NCBI GenBank assembly: GCA_965219625.1
Contig: OZ244782.1
Span: 182,911-246,910 of the forward strand
Direction of reading: 5' to 3'
Source of the DNA: Candidatus Multivoraceae bacterium
GTDB taxonomy: Bacteria; Acidobacteriota; Thermoanaerobaculia; Multivoradales; Multivoraceae
Length of the DNA stretch: 64,000 bases
The notes beneath the pieces were generated by a model. The model had not been told where the DNA came from, did no database searches, and saw only the letters and a list, made by a program, of their open reading frames with translations. Shown here piece after piece: positions 38,376 through 61,292 of the stretch; within the stretch, counting starts at the first letter, position 1; each line of letters starts with the position of its first letter. A program made the translations under genes and the position numbers.

Positions 38376-38376
38376 G

Positions 38377-41332: not shown

Positions 41333-41438
41333 ACGCGCCCTGAACCCGCTCTCACGCGTCGCCGCTCCCGCCACTGGAATCTCCTCGGAGAGCGGCGAGT
41401 CTACGCGAACGCAGGGGCTGCGTGCACGCAGATGCAAG

Positions 41439-41467
41439 AAGAGCGCAGGCACTCGACCTGCGCTCTT
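41439..41467. other. Perfect 11-bp inverted repeat (AAGAGCGCAGG-N7-CCTGCGCTCTT) in the 0.5-kb spacer between the paralog array and the acyltransferase gene
   Basis: The arms are at 41439-41449 and 41457-41467. A 14-nt palindrome, CTGCGTGCACGCAG, lies next to it at 41418-41431. It could be a U-tract-less terminator for the array or an operator for the acyltransferase gene. Its function is unknown. Confidence 0.5.
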
Positions 41468-41835
41468 CGCGGTCCGCAGACCGAACGGCTGCAGTTTCGC
41501 GGTGGGCTTATCGCCCGGTGGGCTCCGACCGCATCTGTCGACATCTCGGGTCCGACCGCTGCGGATGCGTCGCATCCGTCGAGCGGTCCCGGTCGTTCAG
41601 ATCACGGCCGCACAGCCGGATATCGATCGTCCGTTCGGGCAGCGGGACCTGGAGCCCCCGGCGACGCGCTCCTGGCGGTCAGCCAGTGCCGCACCGGGGG
41701 CTGAAGATGGCCCGGCGGTGTCATGACGCCTCCTTCCGTTCGAACATGAGAACACCGTACGCACGGTGCGGAAGGCTGTCAAGCGACCGACCGGTCGGCA
41801 ACTCCCTCGAACGCGACCGAGCGTGCCCGTTCAGG

Positions 41836-43683
41836 TCACCCTTCCGGTGGAGAAACTCCCTGCTCGGGATACACCCCGCTGCCGCCAGCCTCGATGTACT
41901 TCGTCCAGAAGTTCGGAGGCCACGGCAGAACCAGCCAGTCCGCGAAGCCTTCGACGAAGGTCGGCAACGGCCCCCTGCAGTCCCGCTCCACGTTCGCCGC
42001 CCACTCGGGCTTGCACTCAAGCGTCGGACCGCCGCCAAGGGAACGCGTCACGGCGTCCGGGTCGTCGCGAACGCCCGGCGCAGCCTCTCGCGCCGCTCGG
42101 ACCGCCTCGACCTGCACGTCGTATCGATCCGCCGGCACGATCCTCCCGCCGTCCGTGGACCGGCCGACGCAGACCCTCTGCTCGCCCGCCGGAAGGTCCC
42201 GTTCCCACGAGTACGTCTCCGGCACGCCGGTCACCGAGAGCCCCGTCCGCTCGGTCACCGAGAACCTGACCCGCTGCGCGGTCGCCAACGTGAAGTCGTG
42301 ACAGGGCTCGGCGGGCGCGTCGTCCACCTTGAGCTCCACCAGGGCGCCCGCATTCTGCGGCAGTCGGGCGGCGGCGGAAACCGTCGCCGCGTCGGACGCG
42401 GTCGCGGACGGCCTCGAGCCAGCGTCCACGCCAGGCGCGTTGTGGACCGTCAGCAGGCTCGGCATCGGCGTCATGTCGAGGATCCGAGCGCAGCGGTCGA
42501 GCGTGCCGTCGACCATGCAGCGCTCGAGGACGAGCGCCTTCGTGCCGTTCGGGCTGACGTGGAAGAGGCCGGGAGACGCAGACTGGTAGAGGGCGAACAA
42601 CGTGCCTTCATGCCAGCCCGTAGAGCGCTCGATCAAGCCAGCTGGCGCAAGGGGATCGCGCCAGATGTAGTCGATTCGGTACTGCCCGTCCCGCGTCGCC
42701 AAACCGACGAGGCCACGCGTGCGCGGCCGGAGTCCACCGTCGTAGACCTCCCACCCCTCCACCTGCCAATACGGTTCCGTCGGCGGACCGGAGAGGCCGA
42801 GATCCGGAAGGTGGTAGGCACGGAGCTCGCCGCTCTTCGTCTCGCTGCTCTTCGTCGCCGACCAGAGGACGTGAGCCGCCCCTTGCCAGCCGAACTCCCA
42901 CTCGTCGTCTCCCGGAAAGAGCTCGAAGGGATGGCTCGCCTCGTCGTCCTCATCAATGTGGACCGTGTAGACGTGGAAGTCTCCGTCATCACTTTCGGCC
43001 CATGGAAGTTGAAGGACGGGACCCTCGGAATCCAACAAGCTGAACCAATAGGCCGGCTCCGGCTCATCCCAGGGACCGTAGGTCCCGGGTTCGTCAAAAT
43101 GAACGGCGACCCGCCGTTTGACGACCGCTTTCCTGGACGTGAAGTCGCCGAGCCTGATCTCCACGCGGTCGAAGAGCGGATGATCCACGTCGCCGGACTC
43201 CCGTTCGGCCACCGCCCAGACCTCGCCGTCTGGAGACACCTCGAAGGCTGCCTCTGCCAAGTTGGGCCATTCCCTGTTGTCCCAACTCCACACCTGCTTC
43301 ACGTCGCCGCCGGGAAGGATCTCGATGACCTCCTCCGTCCAGGCGCCGTAGCCTCCGTTATCCAAGGGCCCCTTGACGCTCGTCAGCCAAATGCGCCCGT
43401 TCCTCAGCTTCCGCATCCGTCGCACACGGGTCTCCGGCAATTCGACCGCGTCGAGGAGCGAGCCGTCCGCCCCAAGCCGCAGGAAGAACGAACCCTCCGC
43501 GATCACATCATCGAAGATCTGCCCCGCTCCAAAGACAGGTCGAAACAGCAGGACAGCCCGCCCGTCGTCCTCGATGTAACCCGACACGTACTCAGCCTCG
43601 GGCAGTACGAGTCCCTCGTCAGCGAGCAACGGAGCCGCCGCAAGGCAGCAACACAAGTACATCCAGCACGTCCGCTTCGTCAT
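41836..43683 (-). CDS. Array paralog 1: signal-peptide protein of the unnamed ~420-aa family, fused at its C-terminus to a ~200-aa copy of the peptidase middle module
   Basis: The ATG is at 43683 (MTKRTCWMYLCCCLAAAPLLADEG). Residues up to ...ARILDMTPMPSLLT align with paralogs 2-4. The part encoded by 41836..~42448 (EPCHDFTLATAQRVRFSVTERTGLSVTG...PADRYDVQVEA...PWPPNFW) aligns with the region around aa 495-640 of the 848-aa peptidase ORF. Confidence 0.8.
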   Translation of the reverse strand: MTKRTCWMYLCCCLAAAPLLADEGLVLPEAEYVSGYIEDDGRAVLLFRPVFGAGQIFDDVIAEGSFFLRLGADGSLLDAVELPETRVRRMRKLRNGRIWLTSVKGPLDNGGYGAWTEEVIEILPGGDVKQVWSWDNREWPNLAEAAFEVSPDGEVWAVAERESGDVDHPLFDRVEIRLGDFTSRKAVVKRRVAVHFDEPGTYGPWDEPEPAYWFSLLDSEGPVLQLPWAESDDGDFHVYTVHIDEDDEASHPFELFPGDDEWEFGWQGAAHVLWSATKSSETKSGELRAYHLPDLGLSGPPTEPYWQVEGWEVYDGGLRPRTRGLVGLATRDGQYRIDYIWRDPLAPAGLIERSTGWHEGTLFALYQSASPGLFHVSPNGTKALVLERCMVDGTLDRCARILDMTPMPSLLTVHNAPGVDAGSRPSATASDAATVSAAARLPQNAGALVELKVDDAPAEPCHDFTLATAQRVRFSVTERTGLSVTGVPETYSWERDLPAGEQRVCVGRSTDGGRIVPADRYDVQVEAVRAAREAAPGVRDDPDAVTRSLGGGPTLECKPEWAANVERDCRGPLPTFVEGFADWLVLPWPPNFWTKYIEAGGSGVYPEQGVSPPEG

Positions 43684-43910
43684 CTCGTCACCCCCCACTC
43701 CTCGCAACTGTCCGGTTCCGGCCCGAACGTCCAGCGTGCCCCCTCCGCTGCCCCCTCGCGGCCCGAGCAGAAGAGCGAGGTCAACCGCTTCCTGCCCTCG
43801 TCAGTGGTAGAGCCAAGCTCGTTGCTGCCCAAGCGAAGAGGATCTCGACGCACGTTGCAGGCTGCACCGTACCAGCCGTTGAACGGCCGAGGAGTGAACG
43901 CGGCGCCCAA
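43680..43910 (-). pseudogene. Relic 1 of an M23-peptidase gene 3' end
   Basis: The 76-aa ORF ends ...EGARWTFGPEPDSCEE. The usual stop has mutated to Trp, so it runs into the paralog 1 start. FNGWYG...WTFGPEP-SCEE aligns with FIGFYG...WTFGPEPNSCEE at the end of the intact peptidase, but the HxH catalytic motif is missing. Confidence 0.55.
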
Positions 43911-43950
43911 GGCCTGGGACGCCTCGAGCCTCTTCGATCTCCAGGGACGC

Positions 43951-45185
43951 CTATTCTCCGTCGCCGGACTCGCTTGAACTCGTCAGCAGGCTCGGCATCG
44001 GCGTCATGTCGAGGATCCGAGCGCAGCGGTCGACCATGCAGCGCTCAAGGACGAGCGCCTTCGTGCCGTTCGGCTGACGTGGAAGAGACCGGGAGACGCA
44101 GACTGGTAGAGGCCGAACAACGTGCCTTCATGCCAGCCCGTAGAGCGCTCGATCAAGCCAGCTGGCGCAAGGGGATCGCGGACAATGTGATCGATCCGAT
44201 ACTGACCGCCTCGTAACGCGACTCCCTTGAGTCCGCGGTCAGAGCTCGGCCACAACCAGTCGTATTCGTTGTCTTTCTCGACGGCCCAGAACGGCGTCGT
44301 GGGATCGCCCGAAAGACCCAGGTCGGGAAGATGATACGCCCTCAGCTGACTGTTCGTTTCCGACCACAGAACCCGCTCCGCCACCTGCCAACTTCTAACC
44401 CCTTCACCCCTTCCCGGAAACACCTCGAACCGGTAACTCACCTCGTCTTCCTCGCCAATGTGGACGGTGTAGAGACGACCGTCGCCGCTAGCACTATCGA
44501 CCCACGGAAGTTGCACGACGGGACCGTCGGAATCCAACAAGCGAAACCAATAGGCTGGATCCGGCTCATCCCAAGGCCCATAGGTCCCCGGCTCGTCGAA
44601 GTGAACGGTGATCCTCCGCCTGACGTCCGCCTTGCTGGACGCGAAGTCTCCAAGCTCGATCTCCACCCGGTCGAAGAGTGGATTCTCGAGTTCGCCGGAT
44701 TCCCGTTCGGCTACCGCCCAGGCCTCGCCGTCTGGAGACACTTCGAAAGCCGCATCTATCAAGGCGGGCCATTCCCTGGTGTCCCAGCTCCAGATCTGCT
44801 TCACGTCGCCGCCGGGGAGGATCTCGATGACCTCCTCCGTCCAGGCGCCGTAGCCTCCGTTATCCAAGGGCCCCTTGACGCTCGTCAGCCAGATGCGCCC
44901 GTTCTCGAGCTTCCTCATCCGTCGCACACGGGTCTCCGGCAATTCGACCGCGTCGAGGAACGAGCCGTCCGCCCCAAGCCGCAGGAAGAACGAACCCTCC
45001 GCGATCACATCATCGAAGATCTGCCCCGCTCCAAAGACAGGTCGAAACAGCAGGACAGCCCGCCCGTCGTCCTCGATGTAACCCGACACGTACTCAGCCT
45101 CGGGCAGTACGAGTCCCTCGTCAGCGAGCAACGGAGCCGCCGCAAGGCAGCAACACAAGTACATCCAGCACGTCCGCTTCGTCAT
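43951..45185 (-). pseudogene. Array paralog 2: frameshifted C-terminus (open frame only 44004..45185)
   Basis: The N-terminal ~130 aa are nearly identical to paralog 1. Relative to the other copies, one G is missing from a GGG run (about 44072) and a 12-bp in-frame segment is missing (about 44031). The last 26 codons are therefore out of frame. The ancestral stop (cta) is still visible at 43951-43953. Confidence 0.6.
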
Positions 45186-45200
45186 TGTCTCAGGTCCTCC

Positions 45201-45416
45201 TCACTCCTCGCAGCTGTTCGGTTCCGGCCCGAACGTCCAGCGTGCCCCCTCCGCTGCCCCCTCGCGGCCCGAGCAGAAGAGCGAGGTCAACCGCTTCCTG
45301 CCCTCGTCAGTGGCAAGGCCAAGCTCGTTGCTGCCCAAGCGAAGAGGATCTCGACGCACGTTGCAGGCTGCACCGTACCAGCCGTTGAACGGCCGAGGGA
45401 TGAACGCGGCGCCCAA
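45201..45416 (-). pseudogene. Relic 2 of an M23-peptidase gene 3' end
   Basis: The 71-aa ORF reads MGAAFIPRPFNGWYGAACNVRRDPLRLGSNELGLATDEGRKRLTSLFCSGREGAAEGARWTFGPEPNSCEE. The alignment argument is the same as for relic 1. Confidence 0.55.
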
Positions 45417-45456
45417 GGCCTGGGACGCCTCGAGCCTCTTCGATCTCCAGGGACGT

Positions 45457-46719
45457 CTATTCTCCGTCGCCGGACTCGCTTGAACTCGTCAGCAGGCTCG
45501 GCATCGGCGTCATGTCGAGGATCCGAGCGCAGCGGTCGAGCGTGCCGTCGACCATGCAGCGCTCGAGGACGAGCGCCTTCGTGCCGTTCGGGCTGACGTG
45601 GAAGAGGCCGTTCTCCGCCCGATAGATCGTGAACAGGACCCCATCCTGCCATCCGGTCGAACGCTCGACGAGGGCCGATGGCGCCAACGGATCCCGCCAG
45701 ATGTAGTCGATTCGGTACTGCCCGTCCCGCGTCGCCAAACCGACGAGGCCACGCACCCGCGGCCAGAGGCGGCCGTCGTAGGCCTCCCTCCCCTCCACCT
45801 GCCAATACGATTCCGTCGGTAGGCCGGAAAGGCCGAGATCCGGAAGGTGGTAGGCACGGAGCTCGCCGCTCTTCGTCTCGCCGCTCTTCGCCGCCGACCA
45901 GACGACACGATCGGCACCCTGCCAGCTGAACTGCCCCTCGTCGTCTCCCGGGAACAGCTCGAAGAAGTGGCTCGCTTCACCGTCTTCATTGATGTGGACC
46001 GTGTAGACGTGGATTTCGCCGTCATCGCCGTCGACCCAGGGAAGTTGCAGGACGGGACCTTCGGAAGCCAACCAGACAAACCAATAGAGCGGATTCCCCT
46101 CATCCCAAGGTCCATAGGTCCCCGGCTCGTCGAAGTGAACGGTGATCCTCCGTTTGACGTCCGCCTTGCTGGACGCGAAGTCGCCGAGCTTGATCTCCAC
46201 CCGGTCGAAGAGCGGAATCTCGACCTTGGCAGACCCCCGTTCGGCTACCGCCCAGGCCTCGCCGTCCGGCGACACGTTGAAGGCTGCGTCTATCAAGGCG
46301 GGCCATTCCCTGGTGTCCCAGCTCCAGATCTGCTTCACTTCGCCGCCGGGAAGGACCTCGATGACCTCCTCCGTCCAGGCGCCGTAGCCGGCGTCATCCA
46401 AGGGCCCTTTGACGCTCGTCAGCCAGATGCGCCCGTTCCTCAGCTTCCACATCCGTCGCGCTTCCGTATCCGGCAACTCGACCGTGTCGAGGAGCGAACC
46501 GTCCGCCCCAAGCCGCAGGAAGAACGAACCCTCCGCAAGGAAATCATCGAAGACCTGCCCCGGCCGGAGGACCGGTCGAAACAGCAGAACAGCCCGCCCG
46601 TCGTCCTCGATATAACCGTCGACGTACTCGCTACGCGGAAGGGTGACCCCGCCGGCGCCGAACAGGACGCCGACCGACGCAAGGCAGAAGAGGTACGTCC
46701 AACACGTCCGCTTGGTCAT
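45457..46719 (-). CDS. Array paralog 3: secreted protein of the unnamed ~420-aa family
   Basis: 420 aa with the signal peptide MTKRTCWTYLFCLASVGVLFGAGG. SPDGE and SPNGTK motifs hint at a PD40/TolB-like beta-propeller. It is about 90% identical to paralog 4. Confidence 0.8.
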   Translation of the reverse strand: MTKRTCWTYLFCLASVGVLFGAGGVTLPRSEYVDGYIEDDGRAVLLFRPVLRPGQVFDDFLAEGSFFLRLGADGSLLDTVELPDTEARRMWKLRNGRIWLTSVKGPLDDAGYGAWTEEVIEVLPGGEVKQIWSWDTREWPALIDAAFNVSPDGEAWAVAERGSAKVEIPLFDRVEIKLGDFASSKADVKRRITVHFDEPGTYGPWDEGNPLYWFVWLASEGPVLQLPWVDGDDGEIHVYTVHINEDGEASHFFELFPGDDEGQFSWQGADRVVWSAAKSGETKSGELRAYHLPDLGLSGLPTESYWQVEGREAYDGRLWPRVRGLVGLATRDGQYRIDYIWRDPLAPSALVERSTGWQDGVLFTIYRAENGLFHVSPNGTKALVLERCMVDGTLDRCARILDMTPMPSLLTSSSESGDGE

Positions 46720-46723
46720 CTCG

Positions 46724-46945
46724 TCACCCCCTCACTCTTCGCAACTGTCCGGCTCCGGCCCGAACGTCCAGCGTGCCCCTCCGCTGCCACGTCGCGGCCG
46801 AGCAGAAGAGCGAGGTCAACCGCTTCCTGCCCTCGTCAGCGGTCAAGCCAAGCTCGTTGCTGCCCAAGCGAAGAGGACCTCGACGCACGTTGCAGGCTGC
46901 ACCGTACCAGCCGTTGAACGGCCGAGGGATGAACGCCGCGCCCAA
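46724..46945 (-). pseudogene. Relic 3 of an M23-peptidase gene 3' end (internally frameshifted)
   Basis: The start matches relics 1 and 2 (MGAAFIPRPFNGWYGAACNVRRGPLRLGSNELG). After SLFCS the frame changes and the WTFGPEPNSCEE tail is lost from this frame. Confidence 0.55.
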
Positions 46946-46985
46946 GGCCTGGGACGCCTCGAGCCTCTTCGATCTCCAGGGACGC

Positions 46986-48248
46986 CTATTCTCCGTCGCC
47001 GGACTCGCTTGAACTCGTCAGCAGGCTCGGCATCGGCGTCATGTCGAGGATCCGGGCGCAGCGGTCGAGCGTGCCGTCGACGATGCAGCGCTCGAGGACG
47101 AGCGCCTTCGTGCCGTTCGGGCTGACGTGGAAGAGCCCGTTCTCCGCCCGATAGATCGTGAACAGGACCCCATCCTGCCAACCGGTCGAACGCTCGACGA
47201 GGGCCGATGGCGCCAACGGATCCCGCCAGATGTAGTCGATTCGGTACTGCCCGTCCCGCGTCGCCAAACCGACGAGGCCACGCACCCGCGGCCAGAGGCG
47301 GCCGTCGTAGGCCTCCCTCCCCTCCACCTGCCAATACGATTCCGTCGGTAGGCCGGAGACGCCGAGATCCGGAAGGTGGTAGGCACGGAGCTCGCCGCTC
47401 TTCGTCTCGCTGCTCTTCTTCGCCGACCAGACGACACGATCCTCACCCTGCCAGCGAAGCTGCCCCTCGTCGTCTTCCGGGAACAGCTCGAAGAGGTGGC
47501 TCGCTTCGCCGTCTTCATTGATGTGGACCGTGTAGACGTGAATTTCGCCGTCATCGCTGTCGACCCAGGGAAGCTGCAGGACGGGACCTTCGGAATCCAA
47601 CAAGCGAAACCAATAGAGCGGATTCCCCTCATCCCAAGGCCCATAGGTACCCGGTTCGTCGAAGTGAACGGTGATCAGCCGTTTCACGTCCGCCTTGCTG
47701 GACGCGAAGTCGCCGAGCCTGATCTCCACCCGGTCGAAGAGCGGAATTTCGACCTCGCCGGACTCCCGTTCAGCTACCGCCCAGGCCTCGCCGTCTGGAG
47801 ACACTTCGAAGACTACCTCTGTCAAGTTGGGCCATTCCCTGTTGTCCCAGCTCCAGATCTGCTTCACGTCGCCGCCGGGAAGGATCTCGATGACCTCCTC
47901 CGTCCAGGCGCCGTAGCCGGCGTCATCCAAGGGCCCCTTGACGCTCGTCAGCCAGATGCGACCGTTCTCGAGCTTCCGCATCCGTCGCGCTTCCGTATCC
48001 GGCAACTCGACCGTGTCGAGGAGCGAACCGTCCGTCGCGAACCGCAGGAAGAACGAACCCTCCGCAAGGAAATCATCGAAGATCTGCCCCGGCCGGAGGA
48101 CCGGTCGAAACAGCAGAACAGCCCGCCCGTCGTCCTCGATGTAACCGTCGACGTACTCGCTACGAGGAAGGGTGACCCCGCCGGCGCCGAACAGGACGCC
48201 AACCGACGCAAGGCAGAACAGGTACGTCCAACACGTCCGCTTCGTCAT
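46986..48248 (-). CDS. Array paralog 4: secreted protein of the unnamed ~420-aa family, translationally coupled to the peptidase gene
   Basis: 420 aa. The ATG at 48248 lies 12 nt after the peptidase stop. The spacer reads GGGGGTGACGAG on the coding strand and is Shine-Dalgarno-like. Confidence 0.82.
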   Translation of the reverse strand: MTKRTCWTYLFCLASVGVLFGAGGVTLPRSEYVDGYIEDDGRAVLLFRPVLRPGQIFDDFLAEGSFFLRFATDGSLLDTVELPDTEARRMRKLENGRIWLTSVKGPLDDAGYGAWTEEVIEILPGGDVKQIWSWDNREWPNLTEVVFEVSPDGEAWAVAERESGEVEIPLFDRVEIRLGDFASSKADVKRLITVHFDEPGTYGPWDEGNPLYWFRLLDSEGPVLQLPWVDSDDGEIHVYTVHINEDGEASHLFELFPEDDEGQLRWQGEDRVVWSAKKSSETKSGELRAYHLPDLGVSGLPTESYWQVEGREAYDGRLWPRVRGLVGLATRDGQYRIDYIWRDPLAPSALVERSTGWQDGVLFTIYRAENGLFHVSPNGTKALVLERCIVDGTLDRCARILDMTPMPSLLTSSSESGDGE

Positions 48249-48260
48249 CTCGTCACCCCC

Positions 48261-50807
48261 TCACTCCTCGCAGCTGTTCGGTTCCGGCCCGAACGTCCAG
48301 TCGCCCGTTCCTTCCATCTCGTCCTTCCCGCCCCAGCGGGAGAGCGGGTTCAGCGGAGTCCCGTCAGCGTTCCTGAATGCCAAGTGCAGATGGGCACCGA
48401 ACACGGTCCCTGTCTTTCCGTAGAAGCCGATGAACGAACCCGCATACACCGGCCCCTCCGGGAAATCGGTCCTGACGTCGAGATGGCAGATCTGCCAGTA
48501 CTTGCCGTCCTCCACCGTGATCTTCGCCCAGTGTCCGCAACCGTAGTGGTTTCCCACATCCAGGACCTCCTCTCCAGTCTCCGGGTCTACAGTCCGAGCC
48601 CACTGATCGTGATACGTCAGCATTCCCGTCTCGGGTGAGCGGAACCAGACCGGCGTCCGCTTCGTGTTCATGTCGATACCCGAGTGGTTCCTCTTCGTGT
48701 TCTCTCCGCCCCACGCGGCGCCGAAGAGCTCGTTCTCCTTGAAGTTCCGGCTCCGGCAGTCCGTGAAGTCGGCGACATCCGCCAGATCGTCAATCAGACC
48801 GTCCTCATCCGCGTCGACGTAGTACTCGCGCTTGAAGTTCTCTGCCAGATACTCGTAGATCGGCTCCCAGTCCCACGGATAATCGTCCCAGAAATCCCTT
48901 GGCCACGGCATGTTCACGTCGTACGTGAACTCGTAGTGGTCCTCGATCACCGTGATCACCTCGTCGATGATCGGCGGCGGCGTGTCGCAGTCCGGCTGCT
49001 CGCCTCCGTCGATCGCGCACAACTCCGGACCCTCAACCTCCGCCGTCACGGAATCCGGATCCGCATCGTCCGCGGACGAAGCCTCTTGCTCGGTAGCTCC
49101 AATCGCTTCCACCTTCACGTCGTAACGGTCAGCCGGAACACGGAGCGAACTTCCGGCGTTGCGCCTCACGCACACCTTGTGCTCGCCCGCCTCGAGGTCC
49201 CGCTTCCAGGAGTACGTCCGCGGACCGCCGGTCAGCGGTAGCCCGGTCCGCTCCGTCACCGAGAACTTGACCCGCTGCGCGGACGCCAGAGTGAACCGGT
49301 GGCAAGGGTCGAGCGGCGCAGCGTCGACCACCCGGTCGACCAGAACGCCCTCGGGAAGTGCAACCTCCACTCCATGCGTCGAGCGGGCGCCGAACCAGCC
49401 GTTCGACCCCTTCCTCATCCGCAACTCGAGCTCATACGGCCCTGGGGACTCCGGCGCCGTCATGTCGACCTGGAAGGTATGCACGGCATTCGGCGCGACG
49501 GTGACCCCGGCGGGCAGCTCGACCGCCGCGATCCCCCAATCGCCCGAAACCTCGTTCAGAGCGTAGCCCCCGGAACGCGACCACGTTGTGTTCCCCATGT
49601 TCCGCACGGTCACGCTGACCTGCTCCACGCCGCCGGCGGTCATCGTGCCCGGAACCCCGCTAACCGAATCGAACGACGCGTCGTCCCGCGGCGGCAAGGT
49701 CACCGTGATCGTCTCGCTCGGACTCGCCCAGCCGAACCACTTCGTGCCCCGGAGCATCCGCCAACCGAAACCGTAGCTCCCCGCCGTCGACGGCGCCGTC
49801 ATCGTGAAGGTGAACGCATGGCTCTCGTTCGGCGCGACGCTGCCGGACAAGGCGACTTGGCGGAGCCCCCAAGGCGGCGTCGCCGCGGAGGTATGGGACC
49901 CCAGCTTGTATCCCGCGCCCGCCGTCCACGTCGTTGTGCCCGTGTTCTTCATCGTCACCGTCACCGTCTTCGTCGAACCCGCCGTCATCGACGACGGCAG
50001 GCCGGAGTACGACACGAATCTCGCCTTGTCCGCGGGCGGCGAGGTCACCGTGATCGCGCGGCTCGTACTCGCGTCGCCGAACCACGTCCCGTTTCGCCGC
50101 ATCCGCCAGCTGAAGCTGTAGCTCCCCGCCGTCGACGGCGCCTTGATCGTCAAGGTGAACACGTGGCTCCGGTTCGGCGCCACGCTCCCCGCCACCGTCT
50201 TCTCCTTCAACCCCCAGGTCGTGTTGTTCGGAGCACCCTGAGAACCCAGCTTGTAGCCCCCGCCGGCCGTCCACGTCGTCCCGCCCGTGTTCTTCATCGT
50301 CACCGTCACCGTCTTCGTCGAACCTGCCGTCATCGACGACGGCAGGCCGGCGTACGACACGAAGGACGCGCCGTCCGTCGGCGCGGACGTCACGGTGATC
50401 GTGCGGCTCGGCGTCTGCGCGCCGAACCACGGACTGCCACTGCTCGTGATCGCCGGCGGCGGATTCGGGTTCGTCGGGTCGCCGCCCGACTCGCGGAGCA
50501 TCCGCCAGCGGAAGCTGTAGTTCCCCGGTTTGCTCGGCGCCTTGATCGTCAGCTTGAACGAGTGAACGCCGTTCGGCGCGACGCTGCCCGATACCGCCTT
50601 CCGATTCAAGCCCCACGTCGTGTTGTTCACCGGAGATTGGGAACCCAGCTGGTAGCCCTTGCTCCCCGTCCATGTCGTCCCGCCCGTGTTCCGCATCCTC
50701 ACCGTGACGACCCGCGTCTCCCCCGTCCGGAGCGACGACGGCAGGCCCGTGGTCGACACGAACGCAGCGTTGTCCGAAGCCGGCGGGCGAGCCGGCGGCC
50801 GCGTCAC
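48261..50807 (-). CDS. Major (C-terminal) part of a split gene: four NBR1-type Ig-like repeats, a beta-sandwich-like module, an acidic linker and an M23 (LytM-type) metallopeptidase domain
   Basis: The repeats fit the NBR1 FW/Ig pattern (FVSYAGLPSSM..G.TKTVTVTMKNTGGTTW...AP..AGSYSFSWRM...WFG...ITVT). The M23 motifs are HSGID (HxxxD) and GAHLHLAF (HxH), encoded at about 48342-48695. This frame stays open upstream to the poly-G tract (50849), where it reads DRWFGGRSPNRTIKVT, the end of another repeat. The GTG at 50807 is therefore probably not the native start, and this part has no signal peptide. Confidence 0.85.
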   Translation of the reverse strand: MTRPPARPPASDNAAFVSTTGLPSSLRTGETRVVTVRMRNTGGTTWTGSKGYQLGSQSPVNNTTWGLNRKAVSGSVAPNGVHSFKLTIKAPSKPGNYSFRWRMLRESGGDPTNPNPPPAITSSGSPWFGAQTPSRTITVTSAPTDGASFVSYAGLPSSMTAGSTKTVTVTMKNTGGTTWTAGGGYKLGSQGAPNNTTWGLKEKTVAGSVAPNRSHVFTLTIKAPSTAGSYSFSWRMRRNGTWFGDASTSRAITVTSPPADKARFVSYSGLPSSMTAGSTKTVTVTMKNTGTTTWTAGAGYKLGSHTSAATPPWGLRQVALSGSVAPNESHAFTFTMTAPSTAGSYGFGWRMLRGTKWFGWASPSETITVTLPPRDDASFDSVSGVPGTMTAGGVEQVSVTVRNMGNTTWSRSGGYALNEVSGDWGIAAVELPAGVTVAPNAVHTFQVDMTAPESPGPYELELRMRKGSNGWFGARSTHGVEVALPEGVLVDRVVDAAPLDPCHRFTLASAQRVKFSVTERTGLPLTGGPRTYSWKRDLEAGEHKVCVRRNAGSSLRVPADRYDVKVEAIGATEQEASSADDADPDSVTAEVEGPELCAIDGGEQPDCDTPPPIIDEVITVIEDHYEFTYDVNMPWPRDFWDDYPWDWEPIYEYLAENFKREYYVDADEDGLIDDLADVADFTDCRSRNFKENELFGAAWGGENTKRNHSGIDMNTKRTPVWFRSPETGMLTYHDQWARTVDPETGEEVLDVGNHYGCGHWAKITVEDGKYWQICHLDVRTDFPEGPVYAGSFIGFYGKTGTVFGAHLHLAFRNADGTPLNPLSRWGGKDEMEGTGDWTFGPEPNSCEE

Positions 50808-51195
50808 CTTGATCGTGCGGTTCGGCGACCGACCGCCGAACCAGCGGTCACCCCCCCCCCCCGAGGATCGCGACCGGCGGATTCGGGTCGAGCGGGTCCG
50901 GCTTGAGTTCGCGGAGCATCCGCCAGCGGAAAGCGTAGGTCCCCGGCTTCTTCGGTGCGGTAATCGCCAGCTTGAACGAATGAACGCCGTTCGGCGCGAC
51001 GCTCCCCGACACCGCCTTCCGCTTCAACCCCCACGTCGTGTTGTTCGCCGGAGATTGGGAACCCAGCTGGTAGCCCTTGCTCCCCGTCCATCTCGTCGTC
51101 CCGGTGTTCCGCATCCTCACCGTGACGACCCGCGTCTCCCCCGTCTTCATCGACGACGGCAGGCCCGTGGTCGACACGAACGCAGCGTTGTCCGC
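49356..51195 (-). repeat. Five tandem intragenic domain repeats (~115-139 codons each) encoding NBR1-type Ig-like domains
   Basis: Repeats 1 and 2 recur with a 418-bp period (tcgcggagcatccgccagcgga at 50491 and 50909), which is 139 codons plus 1 nt. Repeats 3 to 5 are progressively more diverged. Confidence 0.85.
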
Positions 51196-51300
51196 CGCGC
51201 TCGCCATGCCGGCAGCAAGCGCCAAGCACGCGATGCAGAAAGTCAGACGGCAGAACGCGAGACGCCGGCACACAACACGCCCGACGGTCGAGTCGGTCAT
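50848..51300 (-). CDS. N-terminal part of the same split gene: signal peptide plus the first NBR1-type Ig-like repeat, ending in the poly-G tract
   Basis: The ATG at 51300 gives MTDSTVGRVVCRRLAFCRLTFCIACLALAAGMASA/ADNAAF. The first repeat is about 90% identical at DNA level to the second. The frame ends ...PPVAILGGGG-TGA, with the stop immediately after the G12 run. Confidence 0.8.
   Translation of the reverse strand: MTDSTVGRVVCRRLAFCRLTFCIACLALAAGMASAADNAAFVSTTGLPSSMKTGETRVVTVRMRNTGTTRWTGSKGYQLGSQSPANNTTWGLKRKAVSGSVAPNGVHSFKLAITAPKKPGTYAFRWRMLRELKPDPLDPNPPVAILGGGG
50851..50862 (-). repeat. Homopolymeric tract: 12 C on the plus strand, which is 12 G on the coding strand
   Basis: I counted this directly: a(50850), c x12 (50851-50862), g(50863). 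No other homopolymer of comparable length was noticed in the window. Confidence 0.95.
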
Positions 51301-51546
51301 CGAAGTCACGTGAAACACCGGCAACGGCATGACTGCTTGCGCCCGCCTGTTCAAGATATTGAAGGGTGATGACAATCTACAGCACATTCGCGCCGCCTTG
51401 TCAAGGTCGACCTCTGTCCGTACGGCCGATCAGGTGGCCTCCTGGGGCCGGAACCTCGCCTCGACTCCGGGCGAGGCCAGCAACCGGCCGGCTGCCAGCC
51501 GCAGGCCCGGATCCGGCTTTTCGGGGCGTTTTGCGTCTTAGTCCGT

Positions 51547-53064
51547 GTGATCGCATTCATGAGCTCCGCCACCCCCTGGGGAATCGAAGCGCGGGAGGTC
51601 CAGGTCGAAGTCGGGGTCTACTTCGGGCTGCCGGCGATGCAGCTCATCGGCTTGCCGGACACGGCAGTCCGAGAGAGCCGCGATCGGGTGCGCTCGGCGA
51701 TTCGCAGCAGCGGCTACACCTTGCAGAACCGGAACGTGGTGATCAACTTGGCTCCGGCGGACCTGCGCAAGGAGGGCAATCAGCTCGACCTGCCGATCGC
51801 CCTGGGCCTCTTGACGGCTCACGGCGAATTGCTGCCGGAAGCCCTCGAAGGTCGCCTGGCTTGCGGCGAACTCGGCCTGGACGGGGAGGTGCGGCCGATC
51901 CGTGGCGCTCTCTCCATCGCCGAGCTCGCCGGGCGCCTCGGCATTCGCGAACTCCTGCTTCCGGCGAGGAACAGCGGCCAGGCGGCGGCGCTGGCGAAGA
52001 CGGCGGTGATTCCGGTAACGACGCTGCGCGAGGCGATCGAGCACCTGGTCGGCGACGACACGATCGACCCCGCAACGCCCATCCCCCGGAACGACCGCGA
52101 CGCCTCGGGTCCGGACTTCGCCGACGTGCGGGGCCAGCAGACGGCGAAGCGCGCCCTCGAGATCGCGGCCGCTGGCGGCCACAACGTTCTGTTCATCGGC
52201 CCGCCGGGCAGCGGCAAGACGATGCTCGCCCGACGACTGCCCGGGATTCTGCCTCCGCTGACGCAGACCGAGGCGATCACGGTGACGAAGATCCACTCCC
52301 TCGCCGGCACCGCGCGGGGCGACAGCCTGATGTGGACGCGGCCCTTCCGTTGCCCCCACGCCGGCGTATCCTCGTCCGGCCTGATCGGCGGAGGTTCGAT
52401 TCCCCGCCCGGGTGAGATCAGCCTCGCGCATGCCGGCGTCCTCTTCCTCGACGAATTCCCGGAGTTTCGCCGCGACGCGCTGGAAGCGCTCCGCCAGCCG
52501 CTCGAGGACGGTCTGGTCACCGTGGTCCGCGCACAGGCCCGGCTCACCTTTCCCGCCCGCTTCACCCTGGTTGCCGCGTCGAACCCCTGCCCTTGCGGTC
52601 ACCTGGGCGATCCGCGATCGGACTGCACCTGCAGCGCGCGGGATGTCGACCGCTACCAGCGCCAACTGTCCGGGCCGCTTCTCGACCGGATCGATCTCCA
52701 CATCGAAATGCCCGTACCCAGCCTGGAGGATCTCAAGGGGCCCCAGGGGGAGCGGTCCGAGGCGATCGCCGAGCGCGTCGCGCAGGCGCGAGAATCCCAG
52801 GCGGCGCGGTTCGCTCCAGGGCACCCGATGCCCGTAAACAACGCGCTCGAACGTTCGCAACTCGACCGGGACTGTCAGCCAACGGACGCGGCTCGGAGTC
52901 TGATCGACGCCGCATTCAAGCGCTTGGCGATGTCCGCCCGAGCACTCACCCGGTCGCTCAAGGTCGCCCGCACGATCGCTGATCTCGACGAGTCCCCGAC
53001 AATCGACGTCACCCATGTCGCCGAAGCCATCCAGTACCGGCCACTGGATCGGAGCGCGACCTGA
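51547..53064 (+). CDS. comM: YifB/ComM-family Mg-chelatase-like AAA+ ATPase
   Basis: The Lon-like N-terminal domain includes GLPDTAVRESRDRV. The AAA+ core has Walker A GPPGSGKTMLA, and LFLDEFPEF is present. The start is the GTG at 51547 or the ATG at 51559. Confidence 0.9.
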   Translation: MIAFMSSATPWGIEAREVQVEVGVYFGLPAMQLIGLPDTAVRESRDRVRSAIRSSGYTLQNRNVVINLAPADLRKEGNQLDLPIALGLLTAHGELLPEALEGRLACGELGLDGEVRPIRGALSIAELAGRLGIRELLLPARNSGQAAALAKTAVIPVTTLREAIEHLVGDDTIDPATPIPRNDRDASGPDFADVRGQQTAKRALEIAAAGGHNVLFIGPPGSGKTMLARRLPGILPPLTQTEAITVTKIHSLAGTARGDSLMWTRPFRCPHAGVSSSGLIGGGSIPRPGEISLAHAGVLFLDEFPEFRRDALEALRQPLEDGLVTVVRAQARLTFPARFTLVAASNPCPCGHLGDPRSDCTCSARDVDRYQRQLSGPLLDRIDLHIEMPVPSLEDLKGPQGERSEAIAERVAQARESQAARFAPGHPMPVNNALERSQLDRDCQPTDAARSLIDAAFKRLAMSARALTRSLKVARTIADLDESPTIDVTHVAEAIQYRPLDRSAT

Positions 53065-53077
53065 CGTCGAAGCGGAA

Positions 53078-53118
53078 GGCGGCCGGGCGGGGCCTCCCCT
53101 CCGCCCCGCCCGGCCGCC
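53078..53118 (+). terminator. Perfect 16-bp G+C-rich hairpin downstream of comM (terminator-like, no U-tract)
   Basis: GGCGGCCGGGCGGGGC (53078-53093) pairs with GCCCCGCCCGGCCGCC (53103-53118) across a 9-nt loop. The hairpin starts 14 nt after the comM stop. Confidence 0.45.
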
Positions 53119-53313
53119 GACCTCCAGGAGGAACGTCGAGCGCCGTTCCGGCGCTGCTAGAATCCTGCGCGCACGGACGCGACGCCAGCGCTCGGCGACG
53201 CTCGGGTGCTTGACATCACGACTCTCTCGGCGGATAATATTCGGATTCCTCGATACGCAGTCCGTAGGCGGACGCCCTCTGCGACTCCGCCCCCGGATAA
53301 GGCGCCAATCGGC

Positions 53314-54186
53314 ATGCGGCCCAGGCTTCACACCATCGTATTCATCCCGCGCTCGCGGGGACGCACGCGGCAGTTTCACGTCCGCACCCGCTGGCTCTGG
53401 GCCGGAGCGCTGGGCGGCGCTCTCCTGCTCGGCGCCTCCGGCTGGATCCTCGTCTCCGAGAGCGCTGCCGTTCTCAAGGCCCGCGATCTCGCCCGGATGG
53501 AGCGCGAGAATGAAGACCTGCGCCACATGAACGAGTCCCTCGAAACCTCGGTCTCCCGACTCCAGACGGCGCTGAACGATGCCGAGGACCGCACGCGAGA
53601 CCTGGCGATCGTCGCCGGGCTCGATCAGGCGATCGGCGGCGAGCCGGAGAACCGTCTCTCCGAGAGCGGCGCCGGCGGCGGCTACTCGAGGCCGGGCGGT
53701 CACGATCTGCCCTTGCTCCAGGCGCGCGCCGGCCTGCTCGACCGCCAGCTCCAGGCGGTCGACGACGCGCTCCAGGAGCGTCGGTTGGCGCTGCGCTCCA
53801 CGCCGATGGTCTGGCCTGTTCGCGGCGTGATCAACAGCGGCTTCGGCTTCCGCCAGGATCCGATCACCGGCCAGCGATCCCGCCACCTCGGCATCGACAT
53901 TTCGGCCGAACGCGGTCAACCCGTGACGGCTACCGCCGACGGGCTCGTCGTCCGAGCGGAACGGATCGGCAACCTCGGCCGCGCCGTCTACGTCTCCCAC
54001 CGATTCGGCTACCAGACCCGCTACGGCCACATGTCGAAGATCCTCGTCGAAGAGGGCAGCGAGGTGCGTCGCGGAGACCTTCTGGGGTACGTCGGCAACT
54101 CGGGGCGGGCGACCGGCTACCACCTGCACTATGAAGTGCGGCGAAGCGGCGCCGCGCACGATCCAGTCGACTACTTGCGGGACTGA
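53314..54186 (+). CDS. M23-family murein endopeptidase (MepM/EnvC-like) with N-terminal TM anchor and coiled coil
   Basis: The ATG is at 53314 (MRPRLHTIVF). A TM segment (WLWAGALGGALLLGASGWILV) is followed by HLGIDISA (HxxxD) and TGYHLHYEV (HxH). Confidence 0.88.
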   Translation: MRPRLHTIVFIPRSRGRTRQFHVRTRWLWAGALGGALLLGASGWILVSESAAVLKARDLARMERENEDLRHMNESLETSVSRLQTALNDAEDRTRDLAIVAGLDQAIGGEPENRLSESGAGGGYSRPGGHDLPLLQARAGLLDRQLQAVDDALQERRLALRSTPMVWPVRGVINSGFGFRQDPITGQRSRHLGIDISAERGQPVTATADGLVVRAERIGNLGRAVYVSHRFGYQTRYGHMSKILVEEGSEVRRGDLLGYVGNSGRATGYHLHYEVRRSGAAHDPVDYLRD

Positions 54187-54358
54187 CTCTCCCGGCCGTC
54201 GACCGCAGGCCGAGTTCAGCGACAGCGGATCGATCGTCTCGCCCCAGGGTTCCGCGAACCCACCCCGCGGCAGAGCGAAGATGCGCCGGAACTTGTTACG
54301 CTGACCTCTGAGTCCGCCCCTACCGAACACAGCGCCGCCCAACCCGCAAGACAAGCCG

Positions 54359-57151
<2,793 letters not shown>

Positions 57152-57202
57152 CCGGACCTTTCGCCAGCTCCGGGAGCGGTCGTTCGACTGATAGCTTGCC
57201 GC

Positions 57203-58663
57203 ATGGAACCACCCCCGCTCGCGCTGACCTTCGACGACGTCCTGCTCGCTCCCGGACTGTCGGAGGTCCACCCGAACGACGTCGACCTGGGCACCCGGCT
57301 GACGCGGAGCATCAGGCTGAACATCCCCCTCGTCTCGGCGGCGATGGACACCGTCACGGAGGCCGAGCTCGCGATCGCCCTCGCCCAGGAGGGCGGCATC
57401 GGCGTGATCCACAAGAACCTGTCGATCGAAGCCCAGGCCACGGAGGTCGACCGGGTGAAGAGGTCGGAGGCCGGCATGATCGTCAACCCGATCACGATCC
57501 GCCCGGAGCAGCGCATCCACGAGGCCCTGGACCTGATGGCGCGCTACAAGATCTCGGGCGTTCCGGTAGCCGACCGGGACGGTCACCTCGTCGGCATCCT
57601 GACGAACCGCGACCTCCGCTTCGAGACGGACACGGAACGGCCGGTGGCCGACCTGATGACGCACGAGAACCTCGTCACTGTGCCGGAGGGAACCACCCTG
57701 GACGAGGCGAAGGCCGAACTCCATCGTCATCGCATCGAGAAGCTGCTCGTGACGGACGACGAGGGCAACCTGAAGGGCCTCATCACGGTGAAGGACATCC
57801 AGAAGATGATGGACTTCCCGATCGCCTGCAAGGATGACCTCGGTCGGCTGAGGGTCGCGGCCGCGGTGGGAACGGGAGGCGACTGCCTGGACCGAGCGCT
57901 GGCCCTGGCCGCGGCGCAGGCGGACGTACTCGTCGTCGACTCCTCCCATGCTCACAGCCGCGGAGTGCTCGACGCGGTGGAGAGGATTCGAGGTGCGCTT
58001 CCCGAGGTTCAACTCCTCGTCGGCAACGTCGCGACGGCCGAGGGCGCGCGCGCACTGGCCGAACGGGGCGCCGACGGAATCAAGGTCGGCATCGGACCAG
58101 GCAGCATCTGCACGACCCGTGTCGTCACCGGCGCCGGCATGCCACAGGTGACGGCGATTCGGGACGCCGCCGCTGCCGTCGAGGACCTGCCCGTCGTCGC
58201 GGACGGCGGGATTCGCTTCTCGGGCGATCTGACGAAGGCGCTGGCCTGCGGCGCCCACAGCGTGATGGTCGGGTCCCTGCTTGCCGGCACGGAAGAAAGC
58301 CCCGGCGAGACGATTCTCTATCAGGGGCGCAGTTACAAGGCGTACCGCGGCATGGGCTCGCTCTCGGCGATGGCCAAGGGCAGCGCGGACCGCTACTTTC
58401 AGTCCGACGACCAGCCGTTGTCGAAGCTCGTGCCGGAGGGCATCGAAGGCATGGTGCCGCACAAGGGCAGCGTCCACCAGGTGATCGGCCAGCTCACCGG
58501 CGGTCTGCGATCCGGCATGGGGTTAGCGGGCTGCGCCACCGTCAGCGAACTCAGGACTCGAGCACGGATGATCCGCGTTACCGCCGCGGGCCAGAAGGAA
58601 GGGCACGCCCACGACGTCGTCATCACGAAGGAAGCGCCGAACTACTGGGTCGACCGGAACTGA
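57203..58663 (+). CDS. guaB: Inosine-5'-monophosphate dehydrogenase
   Basis: 486 aa with a CBS pair. The catalytic loop reads [13 protein letters not shown], and YRGMGS is present. Confidence 0.95.
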
Positions 58664-58715
58664 CACGAGCCGAGTCCCTCCACCTGGACCGCCCGACCAG
58701 GTCCCGGGGTAACCG

Positions 58716-59948
58716 CTACCAAGCCCTGGGATCCAACGCGTACGGCAACGGCGTCAAGTTCGTCATCCCGTCAGGGGTCACGACGACGAGGTCTTCGAGG
58801 CGCACTCCCCAGCCCGCGTCTGGATCGTAGAGCCCAGGCTCGACCGTTATCGCATCGCCAGCGGCGAGTTCTCCGGCACCGGGCCCGCTCTGCCGGAAAC
58901 TCGGAAACTCGTGGAGTTCATAACCGACACCGTGGCCCAGGAGGTGGAAGTACCCGGTCTTCGAGCCCGGGTTGCTGTCCGGCACGGCGAATCCCTCCCG
59001 TTCGAACAGCCGGCACACCCGCTCGTGCAACGTCCAGCCCCGGACGCCCGGCAGGACGGCTTCCAGACTCGTTTGAAGCGCGGAAAGGACGAGGCCATGC
59101 GCCCGCGCCAGCCCCACCGGCGGCTCTCCCACACAGAAGGTCCTCGTGCAGTCCGCGAAGAGCCGGCCCCGCGGGAAGAGATCGACGACCACGGACTCGC
59201 CTGCCTTGAGGACCCGTTCCGGACTGCCGGTGCTGTGCCCGACCGCTCCCTCTTCCCCCGGAGCGACAATCGAACTCTCGGGCTGCTCCAGGCCGTGGTT
59301 GGCGAACGTCTGGGCCGCGAGGGCCTTGACCCGGGCCACCGTGACCCGTTCCTCACCGAGCCAGAGCTCGCCACCCTCCCGGACCGAACTGGCACCCAGC
59401 ATCCGTGCCACCGACTCGAAGGCCTGGACCGTTGCTCGCGCGGCGGAAGCGATGTCTTCGATTTCGCCCGGCGTCTTCGACCGGCGGAGCGCCAGCATGA
59501 GCCCGCGGCCGGAAACAGGCTCCCAGCCCCCTTCCTTCAGCGTTCTCGCGATGGCCACGGCATTTCCCGCCGCCGGTCGACCGGCAAGCGCGACTCGACC
59601 CGAAACGACGCCGGCCCGTTCGAGGCCTGCCCGAACGGCCGCGGCGAGGATTTCCTCCTGAGCTTTCCCCTCGCGGCGCAGAGTCTCCATCCGGAAATCC
59701 GCCGGGTGAACCAGGTCGACTCCTCCCGCCTCTGCCTGGGCCGCCTCCTTCCGCTCCATCGGCGTGAAGTAGGCGAGGAGGGCGCCGCCCCCATGCGCGA
59801 CGACACAGGCCTGTCCCAGCCGAGCGCCGCCGACGAAGGGCAGAAGATCCGGGTCGCGGCTCGATCCGGCGAGAACGACGAGCGCCTCGAGATTCTCCTC
59901 GGCAAGAAGCGCCGACAGGAGCTCGATGCGCGGCCAGGTCCTTACCAC
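58716..59948 (-). CDS. M24-family Xaa-Pro aminopeptidase/dipeptidase-like protein
   Basis: The pita-bread fold motifs include VVVDLF...DCTRTF, HLLGHGVGYELHEFP and ITVEPGLY. Confidence 0.8.
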   Translation of the reverse strand: MVRTWPRIELLSALLAEENLEALVVLAGSSRDPDLLPFVGGARLGQACVVAHGGGALLAYFTPMERKEAAQAEAGGVDLVHPADFRMETLRREGKAQEEILAAAVRAGLERAGVVSGRVALAGRPAAGNAVAIARTLKEGGWEPVSGRGLMLALRRSKTPGEIEDIASAARATVQAFESVARMLGASSVREGGELWLGEERVTVARVKALAAQTFANHGLEQPESSIVAPGEEGAVGHSTGSPERVLKAGESVVVDLFPRGRLFADCTRTFCVGEPPVGLARAHGLVLSALQTSLEAVLPGVRGWTLHERVCRLFEREGFAVPDSNPGSKTGYFHLLGHGVGYELHEFPSFRQSGPGAGELAAGDAITVEPGLYDPDAGWGVRLEDLVVVTPDGMTNLTPLPYALDPRAW

Positions 59949-59966
59949 CGGCGGCCGGGTCCCGGA

Positions 59967-60296
59967 TCAGACGTGATCGCTCAGGAAGGCCTCGAAGCGC
60001 ATCTTCGGCGCGGCGCCCGTCATCCGGCCCAGAATCTCGCCATCCTTGAACAGGATGAAGTGCGGGATGCCCTGTACGCCGTAACGGACGGCCACGTCCT
60101 GAGCATGGTCCACGTCGAGCTTGGCGATCCGCAGCCGCCCGTCGTACTCCCCGGCCAGTTCGTCGAGGATCGGCGCGACCTGACGGCACGGGCCGCACCA
60201 GGTCGCCCAGAAGTCGACGAGGACCGGTACCTCCGCGCCCAGCACGTCGCGGTCGAAGCTCTCGCCGTCCACGTTCAGGATCTGCTCACTTGCCAT
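59967..60296 (-). CDS. trxA: Thioredoxin
   Basis: The WCGPC active site is present (DFWATWCGPCRQ). The ATG at 60296 gives 109 aa and has GGAGA 8 nt upstream. The track ORF starts 5 codons earlier, at 60311. Confidence 0.92.
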   Translation of the reverse strand: MASEQILNVDGESFDRDVLGAEVPVLVDFWATWCGPCRQVAPILDELAGEYDGRLRIAKLDVDHAQDVAVRYGVQGIPHFILFKDGEILGRMTGAAPKMRFEAFLSDHV

Positions 60297-60341
60297 CTTC
60301 CGAGTCTCCATGTGTTCTTCGTCCGACTCTACACAGCACGT

Positions 60342-61292
60342 TCACGCGCCGGCGCTTTCCACTCTCCGAAAGTACTCTCTCGCCGCGGCCGCGTCACGGC
60401 CGATCTGAGCCGACAGGTCCATCATCGACGAGAACAGCTTCTCCTCCCGCAGGTGGCGACAGAAGGAGAGATCGACCCGTTCGCCGTAGACGTCGCTCGA
60501 GAAGTCCAGGATATGGCTCTCGATCACACGCTGGTAGTTCTCGTAGACGGTCGGCCGCGTTCCGATGTTCGTCACCGACCGGAAGGTCGCCTCGAAACTC
60601 GGAAAGTAGACCTCGGTAACGTAGACGCCATTCTGCGGGTAGAGCTCGTTCTCGGGCGCGAGGTTGATCGTCGGCCAGCCAAGCCGCTGTCCCATCCGGT
60701 CGCCACGGGCGATCGAACCCGTCATCACGTACGGCCTGGCGAGCAGTTCGTTCGCCTCCTCGATCCGACCTTCCTGCACCAGGCCGCGGATCCTGCTGCT
60801 CGACACGCGCGCGCCATGGGTGCGCACCTCGTCGACCTCGACCGCGGCGAATCCCAGGCGCTTGCCCATCTCCCGAAGCAGATCCACGTCGCCCTCGCGG
60901 GCGCGACCGAAACTGAAGCGCGAGCCGACATAGATCTCGGCGGCTGCCAGCTTGCCGTGCAGGAAGTCGCGAACGAAGGACCGCGCCCGGGTATTCGCGA
61001 ACTCGTGCGAGAACCGGATCGTCAGCACGTAGTCAATGCCGACATCCGCAAGCAGCTCCTCCTTCTGGGCCAGCGTGACGATTCGAGGCGGGGCGGCGTC
61101 CGGGCGCACGATCGACAGCGGGTGGGGATCGAAGGTGATGACCGCCGACGGCGCCCCCACCTCTCGCGCGCGGTCGGTGACCATCGCCAGCACGCTCCGC
61201 TGACCGATATGTACGCCATCGTAGTTGCCGATCGTGGCGATGACGCCCCGGGGCAACTCGGTCGACGCGGTCGCGTCGCGGATCGCCTGCAT
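60342..61292 (-). CDS. ribF: Bifunctional riboflavin kinase / FMN adenylyltransferase
   Basis: The ATG is at 61292 (MQAIRD...). VIATIGNYDGVHIGQ matches the adenylyltransferase part. The C-terminal riboflavin kinase part includes GWPTINL and VTNIGTRPT. The upstream part of the track ORF is Arg-rich junk. Confidence 0.9.
   Translation of the reverse strand: MQAIRDATASTELPRGVIATIGNYDGVHIGQRSVLAMVTDRAREVGAPSAVITFDPHPLSIVRPDAAPPRIVTLAQKEELLADVGIDYVLTIRFSHEFANTRARSFVRDFLHGKLAAAEIYVGSRFSFGRAREGDVDLLREMGKRLGFAAVEVDEVRTHGARVSSSRIRGLVQEGRIEEANELLARPYVMTGSIARGDRMGQRLGWPTINLAPENELYPQNGVYVTEVYFPSFEATFRSVTNIGTRPTVYENYQRVIESHILDFSSDVYGERVDLSFCRHLREEKLFSSMMDLSAQIGRDAAAAREYFRRVESAGA

Follow-up and report, generated by a model that had tools for sequence, protein, structure and literature searches.

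A gene encoding a putative secreted M23 peptidase is split in the window (the whole stretch of 64,000 nucleotides that was analysed) by a run of twelve guanines abutting a stop codon, and the same gene is intact in a near-identical strain in which the run comprises eleven guanines. From these sequences we consider it somewhat probable that the run is a hypermutable slipped-strand junction, with the gene ON in the G11 strain and OFF here. The original prediction had proposed such a slipped-strand on/off switch, and both the disagreement between G11 and G12 and two further variants detected at the protein level argue for it, although the G12 of the window could be a long-read miscount. The most mutable site of the compared region is one of the sites that differ between the two strains, and in the gene for this secreted enzyme it lies at approximately codon 157 of 1022. 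Phase-variable genes typically have such a site early in a protein that is exported (PMC3711429, PMC5084427), and in Neisseria the G/C tracts of at least 8 nt are those that vary (PMC5084427).

The gene is read from the minus strand, so that a C12 run at positions 50851..50862 of the plus strand is G12 on the coding strand, which reads CCG CCG GTC, then the 9-nt unit GCGATCCTC (50863..50871, encoding Ala-Ile-Leu), then GGG GGG GGG GGG TGA. The stop codon (50848..50850, minus strand) stands in the context GGG-UGA-C and is in frame only when the length of the run is a multiple of three, as it is in G12. The run, which corresponds to Gly157-160 of the repaired protein, thereby sets the reading frame. 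The N-terminal ORF (50848..51387, minus strand) ends at this TGA and is 179 aa long from the first ATG, or 160 aa long from the start at MPLPVF. In the +1 frame, the sequence past G12 reads DRWFGGRSPNRTIKVT and remains open for 862 codons to position 48261, encompassing four more NBR1-Ig repeats and an M23-like end. The claim that the run and the TGA split the peptidase gene, leaving its downstream part one base out of frame, was thus confirmed on the sequence of both strands, as was a repeat period of 418 bp, with repeats 1 and 2 starting at 51192 and 50774, 418 nt apart. Removal of one G or addition of two fuses the two parts into a single ORF of 1041 aa from the first ATG and 1022 aa from MPLPVF (1023 aa for G14), which agrees with an anticipated secreted protein of about 1010 aa. 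The M23 part of the G12 allele was expected to have neither a signal peptide nor an obvious start; the former holds, but a gene caller does find a GTG start, yielding an 832-aa product (P0001).

The tract is real and not compositional noise. The 64 kb window contains 60 G/C runs of length 5, five of length 6, one of length 7, which is the second-longest, and none of 8-11; counts drop approximately 6.5-fold per extra base, and about 7e-4 runs of at least 11 nt are expected per 64 kb, or about 0.04 per 3.7 Mb. GGG accounts for 17% of the glycine codons in the trusted genes. With regard to SSR phase variation, both forms of the run, G12 and G11, exceed the repeat length of at least 8 nt for a G/C homopolymer and are placed where a change in length would alter expression.

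The product of the reconstructed gene is most likely one secreted protein of about 1022 aa, predicted to begin with a Sec signal peptide, to continue with five Ig repeats of the NBR1 type and a middle domain, and to end in a divergent M23 (LytM-type) metallopeptidase domain. The predicted start, MPLPVF, is that of the intact product from the G11 strain (P0121), and together with the putative Sec-type signal peptide (residues 1-45, ending LALAAGMASA before AD) it occupies 51196..51330 on the minus strand; the signal peptide was judged by eye from its positively charged n-region, hydrophobic core and ASA motif. Repeat 1, up to the tract and stop (50848..51192, minus strand), matches PF16158 with 30.2 bits against a GA of 28, and the +1-frame part, comprising the last strand of repeat 1 and repeats 2-5 (49353..50849, minus strand), matches it in four stretches (E 6.5e-28, 97.9 bits). 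All five repeats align and conserve the WG, APN and WFG positions, so that the family match is accompanied by the repeated architecture. These repeats are followed on the minus strand by the middle domain (48879..49352), which is also found in a homologue from Tara metagenomes and at the C-terminus of one of the partner proteins described below, and by the M23 core (48333..48692) with its HSGID (HxxxD) and HLH (HxH) motifs. The stop codon of the peptidase gene is at 48261..48263 (minus strand), and the first partner gene begins 12 nt downstream, at 48248.

The G-run falls in a loop of about 18 residues between the conserved RM.R and WFG strands. Because this loop is confined to repeats 1 and 2 and lies between conserved strands, in-frame gain or loss of glycines in repeat 1 should be harmless. 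The DNA of repeats 1 and 2 (50774..51192 and 50375..50774, minus strand) is near-identical over about 300 nt and then diverges sharply in the G-run loop and linker, a pattern that suggests a recent duplication or gene conversion with a conversion tract ending at the loop.

The M23 module does not reach the PF01551 threshold (24.0 bits against a gathering score of 28.7). Several solved M23 peptidases in the PDB match it at E ~2e-3 with the HxH motif aligned. Both HSGID and HLH align to the motifs of solved M23 domains, and the Tara homologue carries HGGID and HLH, so that the HxxxD and HxH signatures are present in both proteins. An exhaustive HMMER search of 1.84 billion representatives returned 108 matches, most of them to the M23 core alone; all nine of the database matches tested are above-GA PF01551 proteins, and P0129 is 48% identical to the M23 module of the peptidase. 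The catalytic module together with the preceding ~200 residues has almost no relatives among these representatives. The Tara homologue, a protein encoded on metagenome scaffold L088, is 40% identical over its last ~360 residues (E 7e-64) and shares the motifs but has different N-terminal Ig repeats. Elsewhere in the window, at 53206..54186 (plus strand), a conventional M23 gene (MepM/ShyA/DipM-like and above threshold) lies between a Mg-chelatase-like gene and secA; it is of a housekeeping type and unrelated to the effector.

The 832-aa product of the window clusters with the 1022-aa product encoded on contig ctg115646_4.89x_l of ENA assembly ERZ26695579 (loci L001-L003). This contig aligns to positions 10243..29242 and 37458..61330 of the window, about 42.9 kb, at 99.99% identity, with five differences that comprise two substitutions and three single-base indels. 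At 50851, the window has G12 and the ENA contig G11, which breaks the peptidase gene in the window; at 44071, the window has CC and the ENA contig CCC, which shortens the third partner paralog to 393 from 411 aa; and at 22382, apparently intergenic between two glycosyltransferase genes, the window has G and the ENA contig GG. The substitutions are a synonymous change in gmk (28095, CTG in the window and CTA in the ENA contig) and a Pro in the window for Thr in the ENA contig in a glycosyltransferase (GT4) gene (22565). Both substitutions look like real SNPs, and the two assemblies would on that account represent two natural populations. Over the 3.1 kb of the peptidase gene the tract is the sole difference, and the G11 allele is an uninterrupted ORF of 1022 aa. 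The G-run is uninterrupted in both assemblies that cover the locus. Comparison of the tract length in a related strain, a check suggested along with the original prediction, thus gives G11 in the ENA contig and G12 here, and the intact gene in a 99.99% identical population refutes the alternative of a fixed pseudogene.

More distant sources did not extend this comparison. No relative of the C-terminal module was present in 185,579 species-representative genomes, and searches of JGI metagenomes with both flanks and a variable gap, or with the left flank alone, returned nothing. SecA is at most 61% identical to that of Holophagae/Acidobacteriota MAGs, and no relative is close enough for comparison of the tract. 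Look-ups with the truncated product, with partner paralogs 1 and 2, with a glycosyltransferase and with the Mg-chelatase-like gene that lies upstream found no third assembly over the tract and returned either the same two contigs or short contigs missing all five discordant sites.

The main alternative, which we regard as rather unlikely, is that the true run is G11 and the gene intact everywhere, the extra G of the window being a long-read consensus miscount and the CC at 44071 a second consensus error. The window comes from one contig of 3.70 Mb, and contig names in the sister assemblies carry coverage tags in the style of long-read assemblies, including 1x contigs. Runs of 11-12 nt are of the length at which both long-read platforms miscount: the consensus of R10.4 reads is reliable only below 11 nt, with runs of at least 10 still problematic (Sereika et al., PMC9262707), and the accuracy of PacBio CCS falls with run length with a bias to insertions (n+1), which is the direction seen here, while with ONT the share of true homopolymer alleles recovered does not exceed 40% (Jeanjean et al., PMC11878640). 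At both coding discordances it is the window allele that is broken and the other assembly that is intact. Furthermore, three indels to two substitutions is a higher ratio than natural divergence would be expected to give, which hints at noise in the consensus, and the CCC/CC and GG/G sites are non-slippery.

Several observations weigh against a miscount. Over 12.6 kb, the window is identical to 1x and 2x contigs of another sample and to a Logan contig, which indicates that read accuracy is very high and general indel noise low. A GC3-based scan combined with Pfam found no frame-broken housekeeping gene in the 64 kb, including rimP-nusA-infB-rbfA-nrnA-truB, pnp, secA, guaB and others, and all three indels lie outside housekeeping coding sequence, which by our estimate makes up about 68% of the compared bases (P ~0.03 under uniform error). 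The absence of indels from housekeeping genes is the pattern expected of real mutations that have been filtered by selection. Additionally, a change from CCC to CC is not a usual consensus error at high HiFi coverage. Two other suspicions were dismissed: an Illumina two-colour poly-G artefact, given that the run sits within an unbroken stretch of repeat homology and occurs in two assemblies, and a third frameshift at 8930-9311, where the sequence in fact encodes nrnA followed by truB.

Variants of the junction itself were found in a search with the N-terminal 185 residues, which identified a cluster of three members: the G12 fragment of the window (P0238), a 198-aa protein present on two contigs (P0236) and a 236-aa protein (P0239) on a 23.6 kb ENA contig (23,646 nt) with a different 5' flank. 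The two additional members are ~99% identical to the window fragment up to AILGGG. Beyond that point the tail of P0236 reads AILGGG-RDP-GG-VTAGSAAV and continues to its stop, where RDP is (C)GCGATCCT read one base out of frame, and P0239 ends AILGGGG-AILGG. When these tails were modelled on the DNA of the window, that of P0239 was reproduced exactly by GCGATCCTC-G12-GCGATCCTC-G6-TGA and the junction of P0236 by G9-CGCGATCCT-G7. In this protein-level modelling both tails were reproduced only with a second copy of GCGATCCTC+Gn and other run lengths, and the unit directly 5' of the G-run thus appears to have been duplicated together with the run in both proteins. The four junction states occupy all three reading frames. 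Because both variants involve duplication of the unit plus the run, a homopolymer miscount cannot create them. Residue 3 of the upstream ORF varies among the 5' modules (C, I or F), as do the 5' flanks, and P0236 also diverges after the tract; P0236 and P0239 may represent paralogous loci or more distant strains rather than alleles. P0236 may be a second locus of the module in the same genome, one of its contigs (3,701,229 nt) being as long as that of the window.

In the slippage reading that we favour, the ~18-residue surface loop of repeat 1 would be encoded in part by a slipped-strand hot spot, a pure poly-G run preceded by GCGATCCTC. With G11 (or 8 or 14), the run would supply three to five glycines, which the loop would tolerate, and the full-length protein would be made and exported. 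With G12, translation would halt at the TGA after the run, leaving a 160-aa stub that consists of the signal peptide and one repeat, the peptidase part would have no export signal, and the tightly coupled downstream partner gene would probably be under-expressed. Gain or loss of a single G at replication would move a lineage between the ON and OFF states, and duplication of the unit plus run would add further states of the junction. This interpretation presumes that G12 is the true state of the population, that the tract changes often and reversibly, that the partner genes are subject to polar effects in the OFF state and that switching is useful to the organism.

The partner genes form a tandem array of four secreted paralogs (41836..48248, minus strand) that recur every 1529 nt and are 85-91% identical in DNA. 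Paralog 1 (46986..48248) encodes a beta-propeller-like protein of 420 aa with a signal peptide, and paralog 2 (45457..46719) a protein of 420 aa. Paralog 3 (44004..45185) encodes 393 aa here and 411 aa in the ENA contig, the single-nucleotide deletion at 44071 (CC for CCC) replacing its last ~25 residues. Paralog 4 (41836..43707) is 608 aa as called, and its C-terminal ~170 aa are a copy of the peptidase middle domain; all four genes are on the minus strand. Over this last segment (41836..42350, minus strand), identity to peptidase residues 661-817, a stretch extending from the middle domain up to the beginning of the M23 module, is 48% (E 1e-31), and paralog 4 could be either a partner-effector chimera or the remnant of a second copy of the effector.

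The partner proteins have no Pfam or NCBIfam match, and a structure model of moderate confidence (pLDDT 61, pTM 0.68) matches generic beta-propellers alone. The family is nearly an orphan in 5.8 billion proteins, its sole outside relative being a protein of 421 aa (P0128, 32% identity) on Tara scaffold L088, where it directly follows the gene for the M23 module. Because this scaffold has adjacent homologues of both, the pair of effector and partner is conserved across distant organisms. A role of the partners as immunity proteins was considered and is unsupported, as there is no family match and the model resembles only generic beta-propellers.

A strong SD-like sequence, GAGGGGGTGACGAG, stands just before the ATGs of the partner genes (48249..48263 and 46720..46735, minus strand). 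The element of paralog 1 begins at the peptidase stop codon, an arrangement that suggests translational coupling. The original prediction had the switch leave the downstream partner genes in place, but early termination of the peptidase could well be polar on the first partner, because that gene starts 12 nt after the peptidase stop.

The condition of this cluster bears on whether G12, if real, is instead a recent one-way inactivation in a strain that is losing an accessory cluster, without frequent or useful switching. We consider this improbable. Besides the tract, the 64 kb window has a single frame break, at 44071 in paralog 3 of the same 9.5 kb cluster, and both genes are intact in the sister strain; the chimeric paralog 4 with its truncated copy of the effector middle domain attests to past rearrangement and loss; and a near-orphan family is probably dispensable. 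However, the 3.1 kb gene matches the intact allele at every position outside the tract and retains its catalytic motifs, and the change in paralog 3 touches the last ~25 residues alone. A run of G11 or G12 by its nature reverts at a high rate, which would render a fixed loss at this site unstable, and the presence of a pure run in two assemblies together with length and unit variants elsewhere points to ongoing slippage rather than a single event.

The sequence around the stop codon raises a further alternative, that the G12 allele still yields the full protein, through either prfB-like +1 frameshifting at GGG-UGA-C or slippage of RNA polymerase. The E. coli prfB site reads AGGGGG-UAU-CUU-UGA-C, and the arrangement here, GGGGGG-GGG-GGG-UGA-C, parallels it: UGA-C is present, and a G-rich, SD-like stretch lies three bases upstream of the shift codon. 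A +1 shift at G12 would give exactly the G11 protein, with peptides across AILGGGGDRWFGG, and SD-like motifs are present at 18 of 37 gene starts against a background of 14%. Homopolymers of at least 8 nt are known sites of transcriptional slippage (PMC3711429). Nevertheless, we judge recoding to be very improbable and the least likely of the readings. The sister strain is in frame with a plain G11 and the other variants are in other frames, so that the frameshift site is not conserved across relatives; the slippery codon is GGG, not CUU; and documented transcriptional slippage occurs mostly on A/T runs. The window contains no Rfam family, no other stimulator was found, and a promoter and terminator scan of the cluster revealed nothing above shuffle expectation.

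The two processes could in principle be combined in a two-layer switch, in which DNA slippage of the G-run and the 9-nt unit would move the gene among three frames and a prfB-like +1 shift would allow some ribosomes to pass the stop of G12 and yield the same product as G11. Such a switch appears very improbable, if marginally less so than recoding. If it were true, the length of the tract would set the M23 effector and its partners to a high, an RF2-dependent low or an off state, and the 5' module (leader, signal peptide, repeat 1 and tract) might serve more than one genomic locus, as P0236 hints.

The locus resembles several known systems in part. As in the poly-G and poly-C loci of Neisseria and Campylobacter, such as gonococcal pgtA (PMC2193922) and meningococcal genes (PMC5084427), a pure G/C run well above 8 nt lies in the 5' part of an ORF whose product is exported or acts at the surface, a change of one nucleotide in either direction toggles between the full-length product and an early stop, and tract length differs between near-identical genomes, a difference that is suggestive in the present case, where it lies between two assemblies that appear to be based on long reads. 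Those organisms, however, are pathogens with small genomes and dozens of tracts, whereas the present one is an uncultured Acidobacteriota-like bacterium, free-living or host-associated, with 67% GC and an otherwise homopolymer-avoiding genome; here, in addition, the gene that would be gated encodes a multi-repeat M23 peptidase and is accompanied by partner genes, and the adjacent 9-nt unit also seems to duplicate. Mycobacterium tuberculosis likewise has coding G/C homopolymers in a GC-rich and otherwise stable genome, where the frameshifts are reversible (glpK 7C, 10.1101/717272; ESX-1-associated tracts, PMC11898584), but its tracts are of 7-8 nt and vary in clinical and experimental populations, whereas the present tract is of 11-12 nt and the evidence for its variation comes from disagreement between assemblies.

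The parallel to the RF2 (prfB) cassette extends to an internal SD-like G-rich element, a 3-nt spacer, a shift-prone codon, UGA-C and restoration of frame by a +1 shift; unlike that cassette, the present site has GGG rather than CUU, a sister strain that is in frame and no autoregulatory logic. With M23 peptidoglycan endopeptidases of the LytM/lysostaphin type that are fused to NBR1-Ig repeat arrays, the protein has the HxxxD and HxH zinc motifs in common; its matches to solved M23 domains are weak though consistent, and many secreted enzymes and toxins have the same N-terminal PF16158 array. It departs from them in scoring below the Pfam gathering threshold, in having almost no relatives and in its association with a conserved gene for a beta-propeller-like partner.

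If G12 proves to be a miscount, the gene is an ordinary intact one with a poly-glycine loop. In genome annotation, where a long-read MAG shows a frameshift at a long homopolymer, neither automatic correction nor a pseudogene label is appropriate, as both alleles may exist. To our knowledge, poly-G contingency loci are textbook examples in a handful of host-adapted pathogens and almost undocumented in uncultured environmental or symbiotic phyla. Should the switch be real, it would represent a classical mechanism in a new host and with a new cargo, an M23 effector that is rare and has conserved partners resembling beta-propellers. Real variation in length would show that an Acidobacteriota-like bacterium whose genome otherwise eliminates homopolymers retains a single long one in a gene encoding a secreted and potentially lytic M23 peptidase, and the stochastic toggling of that enzyme would bear on how such bacteria handle extracellular weapons that are costly or dangerous to themselves.
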